DNA of 64,000 bases from Monosiga brevicollis MX1 (taxonomy: Eukaryota), in the NCBI RefSeq assembly GCF_000002865.3, contig NW_001865083.1:142852-206851 (forward strand). Reading direction: 5' to 3'. The notes beneath the pieces were generated by a model. The model was not told where the DNA came from and ran no database searches. It saw only the letters and a program-made list of their open reading frames with translations. Positions 4,670 through 38,447 of the stretch are shown here, in pieces; positions within the stretch are counted from its first letter, which is position 1, and every line of letters starts with the position of its first letter. Position numbers and translations under genes: made by a program.

Positions 4670-6196
4670 ACAAGCCCGCCCTGCCACCGCGCTTCCTGCA
4701 GTTGCTCTCGAGATTTTTGCTTGCAGCAGATGTACCCGGGTGCAACTGCCTTTTTCCAATGGAAAAGGCGTGTGCTCATGCTTTTGCTCGTGTGAGGTGC
4801 CGCCTCAATCTTTCCTTTTATCTTTCTCACTTGGAACAAGAAAGAGGCGGCCTTTCCACGCGCCGAGCTTTCTCGAGGGCCTGCCATGGATGGCGCGGTG
4901 GCTTGGCCTCCTGCCTATGGCTGCCCAGGTACTCTCCCAATTCTTGCAGACTCGTTCCTTGCTGTCCCCTGTTGTGCCAGATCGAGCCATGGGTCTCTGG
5001 CGCATTGTCTGCCCATGGCTTGCTCCGCCCCCGTGTCTGTTGTGCTGTCGTCGTGCTTGTGCCATGGCTCCCTGCTTCATGCCATCAGGGTGTATCCATG
5101 CGCTGTGTCGTCCTGTGCTGCGTCAGGCCTTGGCAGAAGAAAAGGAAGAAGGCGATTGGATCGTTGATCCTCCCCCTTCGCTATCTATCTGTCAGGCCTG
5201 GTTTTGCTCGTTCTTTTTCCGTGACTCGTTTCTTGTCTTGTCTGTGTGTCGGGTTGCAAGGGGTGGGGTTTTACGCGCTCGTGCTGCAAAATGGGCGTCA
5301 GAGACGCTGGCACAGCCAACCCAACCTCTTCTCCCGACTTTTGTCGTGTGATGTTTGCCGTTACCTCCTTTGTCTTTTTGCCTGATCGCTGTGTTTCATT
5401 GTTAGCTTGCATATTTTCATGATCTTAAATAAACCGTCATCCGCCTGCCTGATGCTTATTTGGCTCTCCTCGCTCTTCCTCCTCGTGCCCGTCCCTCCTT
5501 TTATGTCATATTTTGCCCCAGAGTGCTCATCTTTGACAATCACCAACCTGAATGTTTTTCCCTCTTTTATCCGTCCCATGTGTTTTTGCGCGTCCCGATG
5601 CCGTGGTCCCTTTGTTTGTAGTTGCCTCTTCCTTTCCTTGTTTCAGGGTTGAAGCGAAAAATGTGTTTCGTGTGGTTTTGCAGTGCCTTCCATCCATAAA
5701 TCAAGAATTGACCGCGTGACTTTGGCCACACTCTTATCTTTCTTTGAATCGCTGACTTGACACCAATGCACGAGCCGTGCTTTATAAAGTGAATTGCTCG
5801 GCAGACCACGGACCCAACAAGGGGGAAAGGGGGCGGCTCAAGGGGAGCAAACGGCACAGCAAAACAAAAAAAATAAAAGACCCCACAACGACATGGCACA
5901 ACAATCTCTCCGTCAACTGCGGAACGCTGTGAGAACCGGGGATAACCACGGGCGCGCCGACAGCAGCCATAGGGCAAGAAAATGACCACAGAACAACCAA
6001 CAAAAACAATACGGAAAAACAGAAAAGGAGAGACGGTGGGGTGGAGGGAGAATGGACCTAACCAGTGAATGAGAGACAAAAAAAAAAAAAAAAAAACATC
6101 GAGAGCAACAGCAACACTCGGCAGCGACCAAACTGGATGACATTACATCACAAACGAGTCGCGGCCGGACACATCCACGGCATGGAGAAAAGAAGT

Positions 6197-8552
6197 TTAC
6201 TTGGGAACAGCAGCAACAACAATGATGGCAATGATCAGAAGCAGGATGCAGCAAAACATGCCACCGGCCTTGGCCTTTTCAGATACATAAACGACGTGCT
6301 CGGTTTCTCGCTTCAGGCGACGATCCGTAATGTCCATGCCCTGGCCAAGCTCATCCAGCATCTCTATTGTGTTTTTGTACGCAGGCAGCAAACGATGCAT
6401 CGAATGAGTGGGTGCAGATCAGCGTGCATGTGCGCCATGTCGATGCAAAACGACAACAAGATACTCACCGTTTTGATCATCCAGCTCGTCGCCAATGGCC
6501 ATGCCCACTTGTTTTAACCGTTGCGCCGAGGCGGAGATGGTGGACAAGCCGCGGTCCTGCTCGTCCATGATCCGATCCTGCTCTTGCAGAAGGGCCTGTG
6601 TATCCTGACCGCGAGTGTATTCGTCCTCGACCGGCGCACGGCCGCCGGCAGATCCGTAGAGGGCATTGCGGTGGTAATCGCTGCTCATGGCGCTGTTGCT
6701 GTTGCCTTGACCAAACTGACCCTCGAGGGTTTTGAATCTGCCGAGGCAAGAGCGCATTGATGACGATGAGAAAAATAATAGGGGGTGCACGGCCATTGTA
6801 CCGGACACGAATAGGGGAGGGAAAGTGGAGCGGAGACGTGTGGCAAATCAAAAAGGACAAGCGGGTAGGATCAGCAAATGAATCTAGCAGGGTGTTGTCC
6901 AGCAAGTCGTGCCATCTCTGACACGCGTAGGAAAACCGCAGCCCGGATTCTCATCACATCCAAACCCCTTTCTTTTCAGCCATTGAGTATACGAGGGTGT
7001 TGTTGCGTGTGGTCTGAACGGTGTCGTGCGGGGGGTTGATGAATCAAAGAGAACAGCCAAGTCACAACGATAGTACACCACGGGAAGCAAAAGAAAAGGA
7101 AAGCAAGTGGGATCAGCAAATGAATCTAGCAGGGTGTTGTCCAGCAAGTCGTGCCATCTCTGACACGCGTAGGAAAACCGCAGCCCGGATTCTCATCACG
7201 CCCAACGTTTCGGTATTTTAAAAAAAAAATGTGTTTGGTATAAAAAGCGAACACTGACAATGTCAACAAGAGGAGAAATGGGATCAGCAAATGAATCTAG
7301 CAGGGTGTTGTCCAGCAGGTCGTGCCATCTCTGACACGCGTAGGAAAACCGCAGCCCGGATTCTCATCACGCCCAGCAAAAATGTGTTCCACCCAAAACA
7401 AAAAGAAACACAATGTTCAGCCAAAAGTGACAACGCCAATGTCAACAAGAGGAGAAATGGGATCAGCAAATGAATCTAGCAGGGTGTTGTCCAGCAAGTC
7501 GTGCCATCTCTGACACGCGTAGGAAAACCGCAGCCCGGATTCTCATCATGTCCACTTTAGCCAGAATTGAACCAATATGTAATAACAAGGTAAAAAGAGA
7601 ATCTAATCAAGATCAGTTTCAGCTGTGTTCCCGAGGGCGGATGTGCGTGTGGGTGGGGAGGACGTGAAGGTCAGCAAATGAATCTAGCAGGGTGTTGTCC
7701 AGCAGATCACGCCATCTCTGACGCGTAGGAAAACCGCAGCCCGGATTCTCATCATTCCCTCAAGAAAGTGGTTGAGAAAACAACAACGTATGAATCGTGT
7801 CATGAAGAGGCGTCCGCGTAGGGATGGATGGATGGATGGATGGATGGGTAGGAAAACATCGGGATGTAACCAGAAAACAAGAGATGTAGCTGTGAAAGAC
7901 AAACCATCCCCTCTGCTGCCATGAGGTGGCGACTACGCACCGAGAATTCAGCTGGCGAAGCTGATTCTGACGACGATCGGCTTCCTTGGCGGTGCTACAA
8001 GTGATTCAAATGCCAAGAGTGTGAGATGGCGAACCAAAGGGAAATGAAAGAAGAGCATCGGGGAAACAAGCAGGGTTGGCTGAGCTGAGCGTACACGGCG
8101 TAGGAGCTGGCGTCGTTCTCGAGTTGCTTTTGAAGTTTGTCAAGCAAGGGAGCCAGTCGCTTCAGGCCGTTGCTGGCAGCGTTGGTGGCCTGCCGGTGGA
8201 GCAGGGCAAAAAAAAAAAAAAGGGGGGGGGGGGGGTCCCGGAAATGAGGTGAAAAGGGATACCCCTCCAAACACCCTGGGGGGGGGGGAACCTACCCCCA
8301 TTGCGTTTTGGCCCTTGTTACCCANNNNNNNNNNNNNNNNNNNNNNNNNNNNNNNNNNNNNNNNNNNNNNNNNNAAAAGGGGGGGGGGGGGCTCCAGGAA
8401 GTGAGGTGAGAGGGGATACCCGTCGAAGCACCATGGGGTGTGGGGAACGTACGCCAGTTGCGTTTTGGCCCTTGTTACGCAGGCGAGTGCGCTCGGTGCA
8501 AGCCGCCTGGATATCGTTTGCCAACGCTTGGGCCGCGTCAAAGTCGTCCAGC
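6197..8552 (-). CDS. STX8: Syntaxin-8 (Qc-SNARE), multi-exon; first exon(s) unresolved, upstream of 8552
   Basis: Exons give LDDFDAAQALANDIQ..., TAKEADRRQNQLRQLNSR|FKTLEG..., a SNARE motif QDRIMDEQDRGLSTISASAQRLKQVGMAIGDELDDQN|EMLDEL..., and a C-terminal TM GMFCCILLLIIAIIVVAAVPK. This closely parallels metazoan STX8. Confidence 0.88.
6871..6957 (-). ncRNA. Box C/D snoRNA-like unit, copy 1 (STX8 intron)
   Basis: Minus strand reads GTGATGA (box C) GAATCCGGGCTGCGGTTTTCCTACGCGTGT CAGA (D') ...TAGATTCATTTG CTGA (box D), with a GGA/TCC terminal stem. Confidence 0.75.
7113..7199 (-). ncRNA. Box C/D snoRNA-like unit, copy 2
   Basis: Identical 87-nt core from box C to box D; TGGG/CCCA terminal stem. 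Confidence 0.75.
7284..7370 (-). ncRNA. Box C/D snoRNA-like unit, copy 3
   Basis: 87-nt core with one substitution; TGGG/CCCA terminal stem. Confidence 0.75.
7463..7549 (-). ncRNA. Box C/D snoRNA-like unit, copy 4
   Basis: Box C variant ATGATGA (still RTGATGA); otherwise the same core; box D CTGA. Confidence 0.75.
7671..7755 (-). ncRNA. Box C/D snoRNA-like unit, copy 5 (most diverged, 85 nt)
   Basis: ATGATGA...CTGA are retained. There is a 2-nt deletion before D' and substitutions after it; GAGGG/CCTTC terminal stem. Confidence 0.7.
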
Positions 8553-8904
8553 CTAGCAGCAGAGAGATTCCAAGAGGTGAGGGCCGATGTCGTACTTTGG
8601 TTCTTCCGTCGCGACAGCGGTACAGCGCAAATCAAAAAAAAAAAAAAAAAAAAAAAAAAGGGAGAGAGATCGAGAGAAGACTTGGAGAGATAGGGTGTGT
8701 AGACTCAGAGAGACAGAAGGAAAGACAGAAGGAGAGACAGAAGGAGAGACAGAAGGAGAGACAGAAGGAGTCAGCAGTGGAGGCGGTCAGTGAGACAAAT
8801 GGAGCCAGAGATCAAGACAGAGAACAGGGAGCGAGAAAGCAACGAGGAGACAGACTGAGAGACAGCGCCAAAGATGAACAAACGAAAAGAGATGAGAAGA
8901 AGAG

Positions 8905-9102
8905 ATAAACACAAGGCGAGAGAGAGCGAGAGAGAGAGAGAGAAAGCGAGAGCGAGAGAGAGAGAGAGAGAGAAAGCGAGAGAGAGAGAGAGCGAGAGCG
9001 AGAGAGCGAGAGAGAGCGAGAGGGAGCGAGAGAGAGCGAGAGGGAGCGAGAGGGAGAGAGAGCGAGAGAGAGCGAGGGACCAAGGGGTCTGCTCATGTAT
9101 CG

Positions 9103-9160
<58 letters not shown>

Positions 9161-9356
9161 ACGCACGCCACGCGAGAGAGAAATGCAACGACGACGATGA
9201 TGACGATGACCGGACAGGGACAACAAGTCAAGTCGAGCATTCAAACAACAAGAAAAAGAGGCAACAGCTCATCATCAACTCGAGAGCACGGGGGATGTAC
9301 ATGCAAAGGGAGCAAGTGTGGTGTGCGTGCACTGCCGTTGACACGCAGCCGGCTGA

Positions 9357-9398
<42 letters not shown>

Positions 9399-9444
9399 AG
9401 ACTCCTCCACCAACGCCAACGCCAGCAAGAGCTCACGATTCAGT

Positions 9445-9519
<75 letters not shown>

Positions 9520-9562
9520 ACTGACTAGGGTTCGGGTTGGCGGACGGCTCGCTGCCGTTTGA

Positions 9563-9610
<48 letters not shown>
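8905..9610. repeat. (GA)n/(GAGC) and (CA)n microsatellite cluster
   Basis: Dinucleotide tracts are directly visible. Confidence 0.9.
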
Positions 9611-9613
<3 letters not shown>

Positions 9614-11431
9614 ATTTTTTTTCTCTCAAAAACATTCAAAAAAACCGTAAAAAACACCTTTTTGAGATGAGGCAGAGAGAGGGACGGGCTTTGGTGTGTT
9701 GGGGAGAGAGACGACGCGCCGCCGCGGCAAGCGCAGAGAGACGAGCACAAACGTCGAAACAAGCAATAAAACTAAAGCTAAAAACAGTGCAAACCCAGAG
9801 ATACAGAGCAAACGAGCAACAAAACCAGAGACATTGACCTCACCCCAACACGAACAAAGAGACTTTCCCCCACACAAAAAAAAAAACCAGAGAAAGCCAC
9901 TAGTACATGTAGTAAGCTTAAGCGACGTACCAACGACTGCTCATGCTAGCCGTCCGAAGAACTTGTAAACTGTGACTCCCTTCCGCACTGTGCTACTATA
10001 TAGTGTACTCCTATTACACTTTTACACGCTTCAAGTGTGATAAGTGTTATACTTTACACTTTGTTATCGTGTGATAATGTTACACTTTAGTGTGTGTGTG
10101 TGTGTGCGAAGGGGTTGACTGCGATGGGAAGATTTGTATTACTGGAGCAGGCATTTATACCGATGAAACCGATTGTGAAAATATCAGGGGCTGTGTCAGT
10201 ATGCGAAGACAGTGAAAGCTGTGTATACGTATCGCAGAAACGGTAATCGCCAAATCTGTATGTTCAGAGAAGCGTGCGAGGGCTAAAGAATCTCTTGTGT
10301 AAAAGTGAACAGTAATCCAGAGATGTGTGTTCTGATCCATGCTTCCTCAGAGAAAGAGCGTACATATGAGAATACCCAGTGCTCTTATGGAAGACGACGA
10401 CGCGACGGCTGAGAAGGGAAGGCGAGACGCAAGGTAAAGACGTGAGGCGACGTGCGCGGTGGGGCGCACGGCAAGACAAAGTCCAACGCGAGGGAGACGA
10501 AGCTGCAACTGTAGGGACAAAGAGATCCTTCAAGGCATCGGGTTCGTCGTCATTGGTGCATTGAAACCTCGAGTGTCACAGATCCGAGACCGGTAGTCAT
10601 GATATCGACTCAGCCCCGAGCGTTCCAACGCGATGTATCTCAAGGCTTTTGGAGCCCGGCTTTCGAGCTGCCATTCGTCATAAAACTGCAACTGCAAGTT
10701 GTTGAAAGGAGCCTGATCTTTCGAATACGAGCCAAGAGCTTGTGCTTTCCTGTGGTACATTGGGGCAGTGCCTGTTGACTCGGATCAACCTTACCCTAAT
10801 GCACAGAAATTTTTAGTCCTTTAACCGCCCTTCCCCGCCTATGCCACGCCTGCCCTGCCTACCCCACCACGCCCCGCCTCCCTCTCTCCCTCTCTCTCCC
10901 TCTCTCTCTCTCCCTCTCTCTGTGATAAAAGATAGAAAAAAAAACACAAAAATTCGAGCAAAATTCGAGCAAAATTCGACGAAAACTCACACACACACAC
11001 ACACACACACGTGAGTCGTTTCTCTGACATTTTACAGTCAAGACGACGGCATCTCTACCAGTACACACCAAACCAAAGCTTTCTCTTGTCCTCAATCCAA
11101 TCCTAGATGCATCTCTTATTATACCTTTAAATCATCAAAAAGAACATTTCACCACGAGTCCAATCTCTGAAATTCAATGCTGATAACACGTTCTCTCTGA
11201 CTAATATCACATGGTCACCTCCCATCTCTCACTTGCTCGCTGCCGCGACCCACGACCACGACCACGACGCGGATCCGGGCTTTGGACTTGCTCGCCATCT
11301 GCGGCTCGAGCCCTGCTCTGCTGCGTCGTGCTGTGACGCGCTCTGCACGAGCCCACGGCAAGCATACCACCCGTGCTCTCTCCACAGCTGTGCCCCTCTT
11401 TTTATCAACTCACCACGCTCATACCGCCGCC

Positions 11432-26887: not shown

Positions 26888-34567
<7,680 letters not shown>

Positions 34568-35411: not shown

Positions 35412-36686
35412 CTACAGGTTTAGCAGTGCTTGCCCCATCTGATTGCGGTACCACACAATCTTGTCGCCGTAGTGGCTGGCGCCGAGGACGTCAATATGGC
35501 CGTCGTTGTCCAAGTCTGCCGCATGCACCGCGATCGCACCATCATCATCCGTGGCGATGACAATCTGTGTGGAAAAGGTACCGTCACCCTTGTTGCAATA
35601 CCAGGCAATCTTGTTGTCACTGCTGCTGGCGCTCAAGACGTCGAGATCGCCGTCCTTGTCCAGGTCCGCTGCAAACACCGAGTAGGCTCCAGCAGCCTCT
35701 GTGGTAATGACAATCTGAGATGAAAAGGTGCCAATGCCATTGTTGCGGTACCACGCAATCTTGTCGTCATCGTAACTGGCGCTGAGTACGTCAAGGTTGC
35801 CGTCATTGTCGAGGTCCGCCGCATGTACCGAGGTCGCACCAACGGCATTTGTGGTGATGTTACTTTGGGTGGAAAAGGTACCATTGCCATCGTTGCGGTA
35901 CCAAGTAATCTCGTTGTCACGATAGTTGGCGCTCAGGACGTCGACGTGGCCGTCGTTGTCAAGGTCCGCTGCGTACACCGAGCGCGCACCATCAGCTCTT
36001 CCAGAGATGATGATTTGGTTGGAAAAGTTGCCAACACCATTGTTACGGTACCACGCAATCTTGTTGTCATCGGGGCTGGCACTCAAGACGTCGATGTCAC
36101 CGTCATCATCTAGATCGGCCGCGTACACCGAACGCACAGCATCGGCGTTCGTGGTGATGATGATTTGAGTGGAAAAGGTGCCGTCGCCATTGTTGCGGTA
36201 CCACGCAATCTTATTGTCGTTGGAACTGGCGCTCAGGACATCAGCATAACCGTCCTTGTCCAGGTCCGCTGCATACACCGAGCGTGCTTCATCCACTTCC
36301 GTGCTGATGTCAATCTGTGCAGAAAAGGTGCCATCGCCATTGTTGCGGTGCCATTCAACTCTGTCGTTGTGGCGGCTAACGCTGAGGACGTCGAGGGCGC
36401 CATCATTGTCTAGGTCGACCGCATACACCGACATCGCGCCATTGGCGTTCGTGGAGAGAACATGCGCCTCCAATGGTGCCATCACACGCCGCGGGTTCAA
36501 GTCCACGGCCATCGACGTTAACACGGCCAACACATCCACACCGTTGATAACCACGTGATTGGTCGAATTGATGAACAGCGTGCCATCTGCATCAGTGGTA
36601 ATCGTCGGCTCATCCTCACTGGCAGCCACGATCCAGATCACCAGGGCACTGCTCACCCACACCCAAAACGACTCCGTCTGTATCAT
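35412..36686 (-). CDS. Secreted FG-GAP/VCBS 7-repeat beta-propeller protein, intronless
   Basis: 424-aa ORF with a hydrophobic N-terminus, EPTITTDADGTLFINSTNHVVINGVDVL, and seven SVxAADLDxDGxxDVLSASxxDxKIAWYRN repeats. Confidence 0.9.
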   Translation of the reverse strand: MIQTESFWVWVSSALVIWIVAASEDEPTITTDADGTLFINSTNHVVINGVDVLAVLTSMAVDLNPRRVMAPLEAHVLSTNANGAMSVYAVDLDNDGALDVLSVSRHNDRVEWHRNNGDGTFSAQIDISTEVDEARSVYAADLDKDGYADVLSASSNDNKIAWYRNNGDGTFSTQIIITTNADAVRSVYAADLDDDGDIDVLSASPDDNKIAWYRNNGVGNFSNQIIISGRADGARSVYAADLDNDGHVDVLSANYRDNEITWYRNDGNGTFSTQSNITTNAVGATSVHAADLDNDGNLDVLSASYDDDKIAWYRNNGIGTFSSQIVITTEAAGAYSVFAADLDKDGDLDVLSASSSDNKIAWYCNKGDGTFSTQIVIATDDDGAIAVHAADLDNDGHIDVLGASHYGDKIVWYRNQMGQALLNL

Positions 36687-37159: not shown

Positions 37160-38447
37160 TTACAAGTTTGATAGGATTTGCCCCATCTGATTGCGGTACC
37201 ATGCAATCTTATCATCTGCTTCACTGGCGCTGAGGACGTCCATATGGCCGTCGTTGTCCAAATCTGCTGCATATACCGAGTGGGCCCCATTGGCTCCCGT
37301 GGTGATGCCAATCTGCATAGAGAAAGTCCCGTCGCCGTTGTTGCAATACCACGCAATCTTGTCGTCGCGGTAGCTGGCACTAAGCACGTCGAGGTCGCCA
37401 TCGTTGTCCAGGTCCGCCGCATACACCGAATGCACCCAGTCGGCGTCTGTGGTCATGATGATCTGCGTGGAAAAGGTGCTATTGCCCTGGTTGCGGTACC
37501 ATGCAATTTTGTCATCATCTGCGCTGGCACTGAGAACGTCCAGATGACCATCGTTGTCCAGGTCTGCCGCAAACACCGAGCGCGCACCTTTCGCATCCGT
37601 ACTTATGATGTTTTGTGCAGAAAACGCGCCGTTGCCATTGTTGCGATACCACGCAATCTTGTCGTCGTGGACACTGGCGCTGAGAACATCGACATGACCG
37701 TCGTTGTCAAGGTCCGCCGCATGCACGGAGAAAGCGCCCTTGGCGTCTGAGGTGATGATAATCTGTGAAGAAAAGGTGCCATCGCCATTGTTGCGGTACC
37801 ATGCAACCTTGTCGTCCCCCAGGCTGGCACTCAAGATGTCGATGTCACCGTCATTATCTAGATCAGCCGCGTACACGGATCGCGCCACATCGGCGTTTGT
37901 GGTGATGATGATTTGAGTGGAGAAGGTGCCGCGCCATTGTTGCGGTACCACGCAATCTTGTCGTCTTTGGAGCTGGCACTCAGGACGTCGAGGTCGCCAT
38001 CATTGTCCAGGTCCGCTGCATATACCTCGCGCGCTTCATCGGCGTTTGTGCTGATGTTAATCTGTGCAGAAAAGGTGCCATTGCCATTGTTTCGGTACCA
38101 TGCAATCTTGTCGTCAACACCACTGGCGCTGAGGACGTCGACATGACCATCGTTGTCTAGGTCGGCCGCATACACCGAGAGCGCGCCCTTGACGTCTATG
38201 GAGATCTTGTGACTCTCGAGAGGATGCATGATGCGCTGTGGCTTCAAACTAGCGACCACCGCCTGTAGCACGGCTGCACATCCACGCCGTTGACGACGAT
38301 ATTCGCACCATTGATGGCCACTTGATTGCTGGCATTGATCGAGAACGTCCCATCTGCATGTGCAGCAATTGTCGGCTTGCGGACATCGGCCGCCATGGCC
38401 CAGGCCACCAGGCCACTGACCACCACCATCACCCAGAGCCTCACCAT
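37160..38447 (-). pseudogene. Third FG-GAP paralogue with two apparent single-base frameshifts (pseudogene or sequencing errors)
   Basis: MVRLWVMVVVSGLVAWAMAA-DVRKPTIAAHADGTF. The frame breaks at ~38275 (VDV-QPC instead of VDVLAVL) and ~37932 (NNG-AAP instead of NNGDGTF). Seven repeats in total. Confidence 0.72.

Follow-up and report, generated by a model that had tools for sequence, protein, structure and literature searches.

Five near-identical units of 85 to 87 nt, very likely box C/D snoRNA paralogues by their sequence features, are arrayed in a single intron of a syntaxin-8-like gene in the window (the whole 64,000-nucleotide stretch of DNA analyzed here). In our best explanation, locally duplicated C/D genes reside in an intron of a housekeeping SNARE gene, would be released by cutting in the spacers between them, and have 5.8S rRNA A42 as a candidate target; taken as a whole, this explanation has a probability of roughly 0.8 in our judgment. 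The units probably represent a new box C/D family in an already known arrangement.

The host gene, encoding a syntaxin-8-like Qc-SNARE of 232 aa, was delineated at 6197-9944 on the minus strand using spliced contigs and protein matches. Its exons lie at 9931-9944 (inferred from a database protein), 8453-8552, 8095-8189, 7941-7994, 6469-6737, and 6197-6363. The unit-bearing intron (6738-7940; GT-AG, 1,203 nt, phase 2) is bounded on its 5′ side by the exon at 7941-7994, seen in spliced contigs, and on its 3′ side by the exon at 6469-6737, seen in spliced contigs and protein matches, which carries the first half of the SNARE motif. The RNA data were assembled contigs, which do not show RNA ends. 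Contigs from three of the four runs (X6, X7, and X9, from three studies) skipped exactly 1,203 nt, and run X12 yielded unspliced pieces only at the host locus. The exons join in frame across 6738-7940 (...LNSR/FKT...), and with the GT..AG ends and splicing in three runs this confirmed the single intron and in-frame exons described in the earlier note. The three neighbouring host introns measure 100-263 nt. As for the host protein, the downstream exon matched a Monosiga brevicollis protein, named syntaxin-8 in UniRef, at 100% identity and two relatives at about 70%; the top PDB match was syntaxin 8 (E 2e-4), and one of the four exons scanned, the last of the gene, gave a Pfam SNARE match (E 1e-8). 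These matches confirm the syntaxin-8-like, choanoflagellate host proposed earlier. The description of a SNARE gene as an unusual host fared less well: if what a snoRNA host gene chiefly needs is a broad expression profile, as stated in PMC3511168, this host is unremarkable, and non-ribosomal snoRNA hosts are already known. At the same gene, the marine metatranscriptome run X9 contained a host mRNA variant (window 6145-6702) with seven substitutions and a 6-nt in-frame insertion, whose splice joints were the same as in the other runs. In another host intron, an 85%-identical duplicate (8218-8324 and 8375-8481) flanks a gap of 50 N and is likely an assembly artefact repeating an exon end.

The units, numbered in transcript order, are u1 (7671-7755, 85 nt), u2 (7463-7549), u3 (7284-7370), u4 (7113-7199, the reference copy), and u5 (6871-6957, identical to u4), the last four being 87 nt each. 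All lie on the minus strand, sense to the host gene, and the 3′ end of u5 is 133 nt from the 3′ splice site. Thus, all five near-identical units reported before, running from RTGATGA to CTGA, were found. Copies u2 to u5 differed pairwise at 0-2 positions, and the most divergent copy, u1, had 4-5 mismatches to each of the others as well as a 2-nt gap. Each unit half occurred five times in the window versus not once in 100 shuffles (with up to three mismatches), and no further full copy was found by BLAST in the 64 kb beyond the five intronic ones. Splicing of the units as exons, which the earlier note had named as evidence against its own reading, appeared in no contig. A three-part pattern search for homologues in metagenome contigs gave no match; 120 look-alikes matching a looser pattern in viral contigs were set aside as chance, the best BLAST E value being 0.098 over 268 loci. 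Read depth was likewise dropped as a sign of unit enrichment, since repeat contigs collapse copies and holes in coverage prove nothing.

Boxes C (RTGATGA) and D (CTGA) were exact in all five copies, and in u4 they occupy 7193-7199 and 7113-7116, respectively. In a K-turn, the base at position -2 of box C pairs with the base at position +1 of box D. Terminal stems in this register were found in every unit, with 6, 3, 3, 3, and 3 bp in u1 to u5, and the first pair varied among them (G-C, A-U, G-U, G-U, and A-U, respectively). The stem of u2 reads A-U, G-C, G-C, and that of both u3 and u4 reads G-U, G-C, G-C. The earlier note was therefore right that each copy has a terminal stem, but the TGGG/CCCA pairing it gave for u3 and u4 is shifted by one base from the K-turn register. 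Internally, a 7-bp hairpin with a GAGA tetraloop (7150-7167 in u4, minus strand) is present in all five copies with pair probabilities of 0.89-1.0. The variant in u1 (CGCGUCA-GAGA-UGGCGUG) retains the helix through a U-A to C-G and a G-C to G-U change; as all the compensations come from this one divergent copy, they count as few events. On either side of the hairpin in u4, CUAC (7169-7172) and UUGCUGG (7141-7147), both on the minus strand, are candidate degenerate D′ and C′ boxes; such degeneracy is usual in box C/D snoRNAs according to PMC2780460. CAGA, another possible D′ box, falls within the conserved hairpin and was dropped for that reason. The interval separating the putative D′ box from the putative C′ box contains all five differences of u1 other than at R, with a rough chance probability of 0.001 for a region that was picked from the structure. 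A scan for C and D boxes with a stem gave 0.5 matches per shuffled window, and all five units passed it. It also returned a single-copy 61-nt ATGATGA...CTGA element with a 3-bp stem at 1795-1855 on the plus strand, which is within shuffle expectation.

Beyond the C and D boxes, similarity between most copies drops within a few bases, with flank identities of 5-14 of 30 positions in 19 of the 20 comparisons; the sole exception was the pair of flanks downstream of u2 and u3 (25/30 identical). The box C/D identity claimed for the units is thus backed by exact boxes, register-correct stems that vary between copies, a compensated hairpin, and conservation bounded by the boxes. Whole-unit folding was no better than that of shuffles (z -1.1 to 0.1). 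Three scans with the Rfam 15 covariance models covered the units: the one over the 64 kb gave no match at gathering score, and the other two gave best E values of 6.5 and 8.6, far under gathering.

The spacers and flanks also bear on the history of the array. The spacer similarity noticed before is real, in that the first 26 nt of the spacers downstream of u2 and u3 are alike, and this likeness is due to recent duplication. The description of the spacers as U-rich held for two of the four (46% and 42% U) but not for the other two (31%); the unit itself has 26%. In the u4-u5 spacer, we found a stretch that the earlier note had overlooked (6976-7003, minus strand), which matches the 3′ part of the unit at 22 of 28 positions and ends in CTGA. 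With six spacers tested, 1 of 1,000 shuffles scored as well. The stretch keeps the ACAACACCCT start and the GCTGA end, its mismatches are concentrated in the guide region, and neither a matching C box nor a register-correct stem was seen with it. We read it as the decayed remnant of a sixth copy, which would mean that copies turn over. The array copies may have arisen by unequal recombination, with one of them decaying afterward, and their likeness may have been kept by recent duplication or gene conversion together with selection on boxes and stems. Selection for dosage is possible; drift via unequal recombination accounts for the array equally well. Five copies, one of them divergent, and a sixth that has decayed form a small natural series for the study of birth-and-death evolution of guide RNAs.

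Vertebrates mostly carry one snoRNA per intron. In the syntaxin-8-like gene, five units lie in one spliced intron and all are sense to the host, which is the arrangement of an intronic snoRNA cluster. According to PMC2780460, rice and Drosophila provided the first descriptions of such clusters; Chlamydomonas and Ostreococcus have them as well, the algal ones often holding isoforms, according to PMC7671301. As in these four organisms, several sense snoRNA genes share an intron from which they need to be released (PMC2780460, PMC7671301, and PMC11028025). Unlike the clusters of these organisms (those of rice, Drosophila, and Chlamydomonas being compared on features other than copy number per intron), the Monosiga array consists of five near-identical paralogues and a remnant in a SNARE gene. 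It resembles the mammalian SNORD115/116 and SNORD113/114 arrays in that a single C/D gene was amplified locally in tandem and the copies are homogenised. Those arrays, as described in PMC11028025, have one gene per repeated intron, non-coding hosts, and up to hundreds of copies, whereas the Monosiga units lie in a single intron of a coding gene. A literature search, with subscription papers mostly outside its reach, returned no choanoflagellate snoRNA cluster and no description of this locus, and snoRNA annotation in protists is sparse according to PMC11028025. The array places the several-per-intron arrangement in the sister group of animals.

A C/D guide is a 10-21-nt antisense element directly upstream of box D or D′. 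The candidate D′ guide (unit positions 15-27; 7173-7185 in u4, minus strand) is antisense to positions 38-50 of the 5.8S rRNA of other eukaryotes. Targets were sought in 7 LSU, 5 SSU, and 6 5.8S rRNAs, all from eukaryotes other than the host. For unit positions 8-31, the best 12-mer match was to 5.8S positions 38-49 in five of the six 5.8S rRNAs, which were unselected (shuffle p 0-0.09), and one of the six paired with the D′ guide at 13 of 13 positions. A motif scan of metagenomes gave 119 loci, 17 of them real 5.8S genes (profile score >35), and included fully matching variants; this set was chosen for matching the motif and thus shows only that such variants exist. Among these variants, 10 of the 17 having been examined further, no choanoflagellate 5.8S was recognised. 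If CUAC is the D′ box, the base at D′+5 is A42 of 5.8S, in a register that was partly chosen because CUAC and UUGCUGG are degenerate as D′ and C′ boxes, respectively. In the common form of 5.8S, the guide has a mismatch adjoining the target base, and its score of 9-9.5 against this form is the same as that reached by the best matches expected by chance in whole LSU rRNAs. We hold it a little short of an even chance that the 5′ element guides 2′-O-methylation of A42 through a degenerate D′ box.

This modification has precedents. In PMC2780460, PMC11542601, and PMC8583080, Am42 of 5.8S is given, as a mapped or predicted site, for Neurospora crassa (guided by CD29 from its D′ box) and Ostreococcus, and Am47 for Arabidopsis (snoR9); these sources list no human or yeast counterpart of Am42. 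By eye, the N. crassa CD29 layout in PMC2780460 is like that of the Monosiga unit, with a C box, about 10 nt, a GCUGCG element, six bases, a D′ box, and a hairpin. The two differ by three changes inside the element and in the D′ box (CUAC in Monosiga versus AUGA in CD29), and the D guide of CD29 matches U2 whereas that of the Monosiga unit does not. Unlike the Monosiga candidate, which would act through its 5′ element, snoR9 guides through its 3′ element, according to PMC8583080. U14 was also considered, since it is about as long and its 5′ element (N. crassa CD37) bears a loose resemblance, and was rejected, as the 3′ element is unrelated to that of CD37, no Rfam U14 match was found, and no SSU match exceeded chance. 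If A42 is the true target, a methylation of plants, algae, and Neurospora that is unlisted in yeast and human would extend to choanoflagellates.

The reading that best competes with A42 overlaps our explanation: the array would be a true C/D cluster acting on something else, be it an LSU site, a tRNA, an mRNA, or a role as a chaperone that needs no methylation. We consider it a serious option, though one that falls clearly below even odds. The 5′ element pairs with two conserved LSU stretches, forming 10 bp in one LSU and 11 of 12 pairs with a C-A mismatch elsewhere, but the second of these sites, in the H73 region, has the mismatching A in all 29 anchored loci. Upstream of box D, the 3′ element does not vary among the five copies and forms short paired blocks with LSU sites that are conserved; these pairings, however, are of 7-9 bp and are bulged or outside the D+5 register, and no LSU match of either element beats shuffled guides. 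Across the 7 LSU and 5 SSU rRNAs of other eukaryotes, the D-box guide gave no match above shuffles (p 0.08-0.95). Nor was any match to M. brevicollis U1, U2, U4, and U6, in the sequences of PMC2396436, convincing by eye; the 5′ stem of U6 was discarded as a target, its 11-bp match including three G-U pairs. In that same source, the predicted M. brevicollis U2 deviates from the usual sequence beside the branch-site recognition region.

For the release of the units, splicing of the host pre-mRNA, the step seen in the contigs, would free the intron. By analogy with known snoRNA biology, the excised intron would then be debranched and cut by an endonuclease in the unstructured spacers, and trimming to ends shielded by Snu13, Nop56, Nop58, and fibrillarin at the C/D kink-turn would leave RNAs of about 90 nt. 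Spacer folding was no better than that of shuffles (z -0.8 to +1.3). The AGNN tetraloop is the signal for Rnt1, and of the intron's nine tetraloop stems of at least 5 bp, none carries it. According to PMC3563456, neither Dicer nor Drosha turned up in Monosiga in a search for tandem RNase III domains, a kind of search that single-domain enzymes would escape.

A departure from this route, either release other than by RNase III or a stable sno-lncRNA of five RNPs, combined with a non-ribosomal target of the D-box element, seems improbable to us. Also improbable, as a separate reading, is that the intron stays uncut between units and exonucleases trim it to u1 and u5, leaving a sno-lncRNA of about 0.9 kb or a ladder of 2- to 5-mers. 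The unstructured spacers, the lack of an AGNN loop on any intron stem of at least 5 bp, and the reported lack of Dicer and Drosha make the uncut form a real minority option, but the last of these comes from a search blind to single-domain enzymes (PMC3563456). Mammalian introns with two snoRNAs yield sno-lncRNAs (PMC11028025), and Ostreococcus accumulates stable forms containing several snoRNAs; on the other hand, plant and algal clusters are processed to monomers (both from PMC7671301). One X6 contig extends from u4 across the spacer into u5, though its status as RNA is a guess and it is equally explicable as pre-mRNA or DNA. Each inner copy has its own register-correct terminal stem, which fits individual RNPs and thus favours monomers. 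Our preferred reading remains cutting in the spacers. The locus is a compact test case for the separation of intronic clusters that show no visible RNase III signal. Either release reading, if true, would mean that snoRNAs are made in a new way in the sister group of animals.

That the units are a non-functional local repeat, a SINE or a MITE, with C and D boxes by chance is very unlikely: they have no Rfam match and the Monosiga genome is rich in repeats, but the hallmarks of MITEs (terminal inverted repeats) and SINEs (a poly(A) tail with a target-site duplication) do not occur in them, there being no inverted repeat of at least 15 nt in 6000-9000, neither a poly(A) tail nor a target-site duplication to be seen at the units, and no copy outside the intron in 64 kb; they also begin and end at the C and D boxes, and compensating changes occur in two helices.

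Other features were recorded in the DNA compared. A stretch of about 85 nt resembling eukaryotic LSU rRNA is embedded in an AT-rich part of a viral contig of 104.7 kb (locus L001, 7995-8085, minus strand) and scored under the Rfam gathering threshold; at least 28 eukaryotic rDNA stretches (L002-L029), some of them full operons with group I introns, occur in bacterial assemblies and are probably contamination, none of them being recognised as choanoflagellate. The window itself contains a 138-bp tandem repeat of 7.2 copies at 1-1000 and a 43-bp one of 9.8 copies at 2066-2486 (99% each), and three coding arrays of 150-bp repeats at 26919-27757, 35443-36454, and 37191-38197 (about 72-76% identity), which are probably repeat-protein genes.
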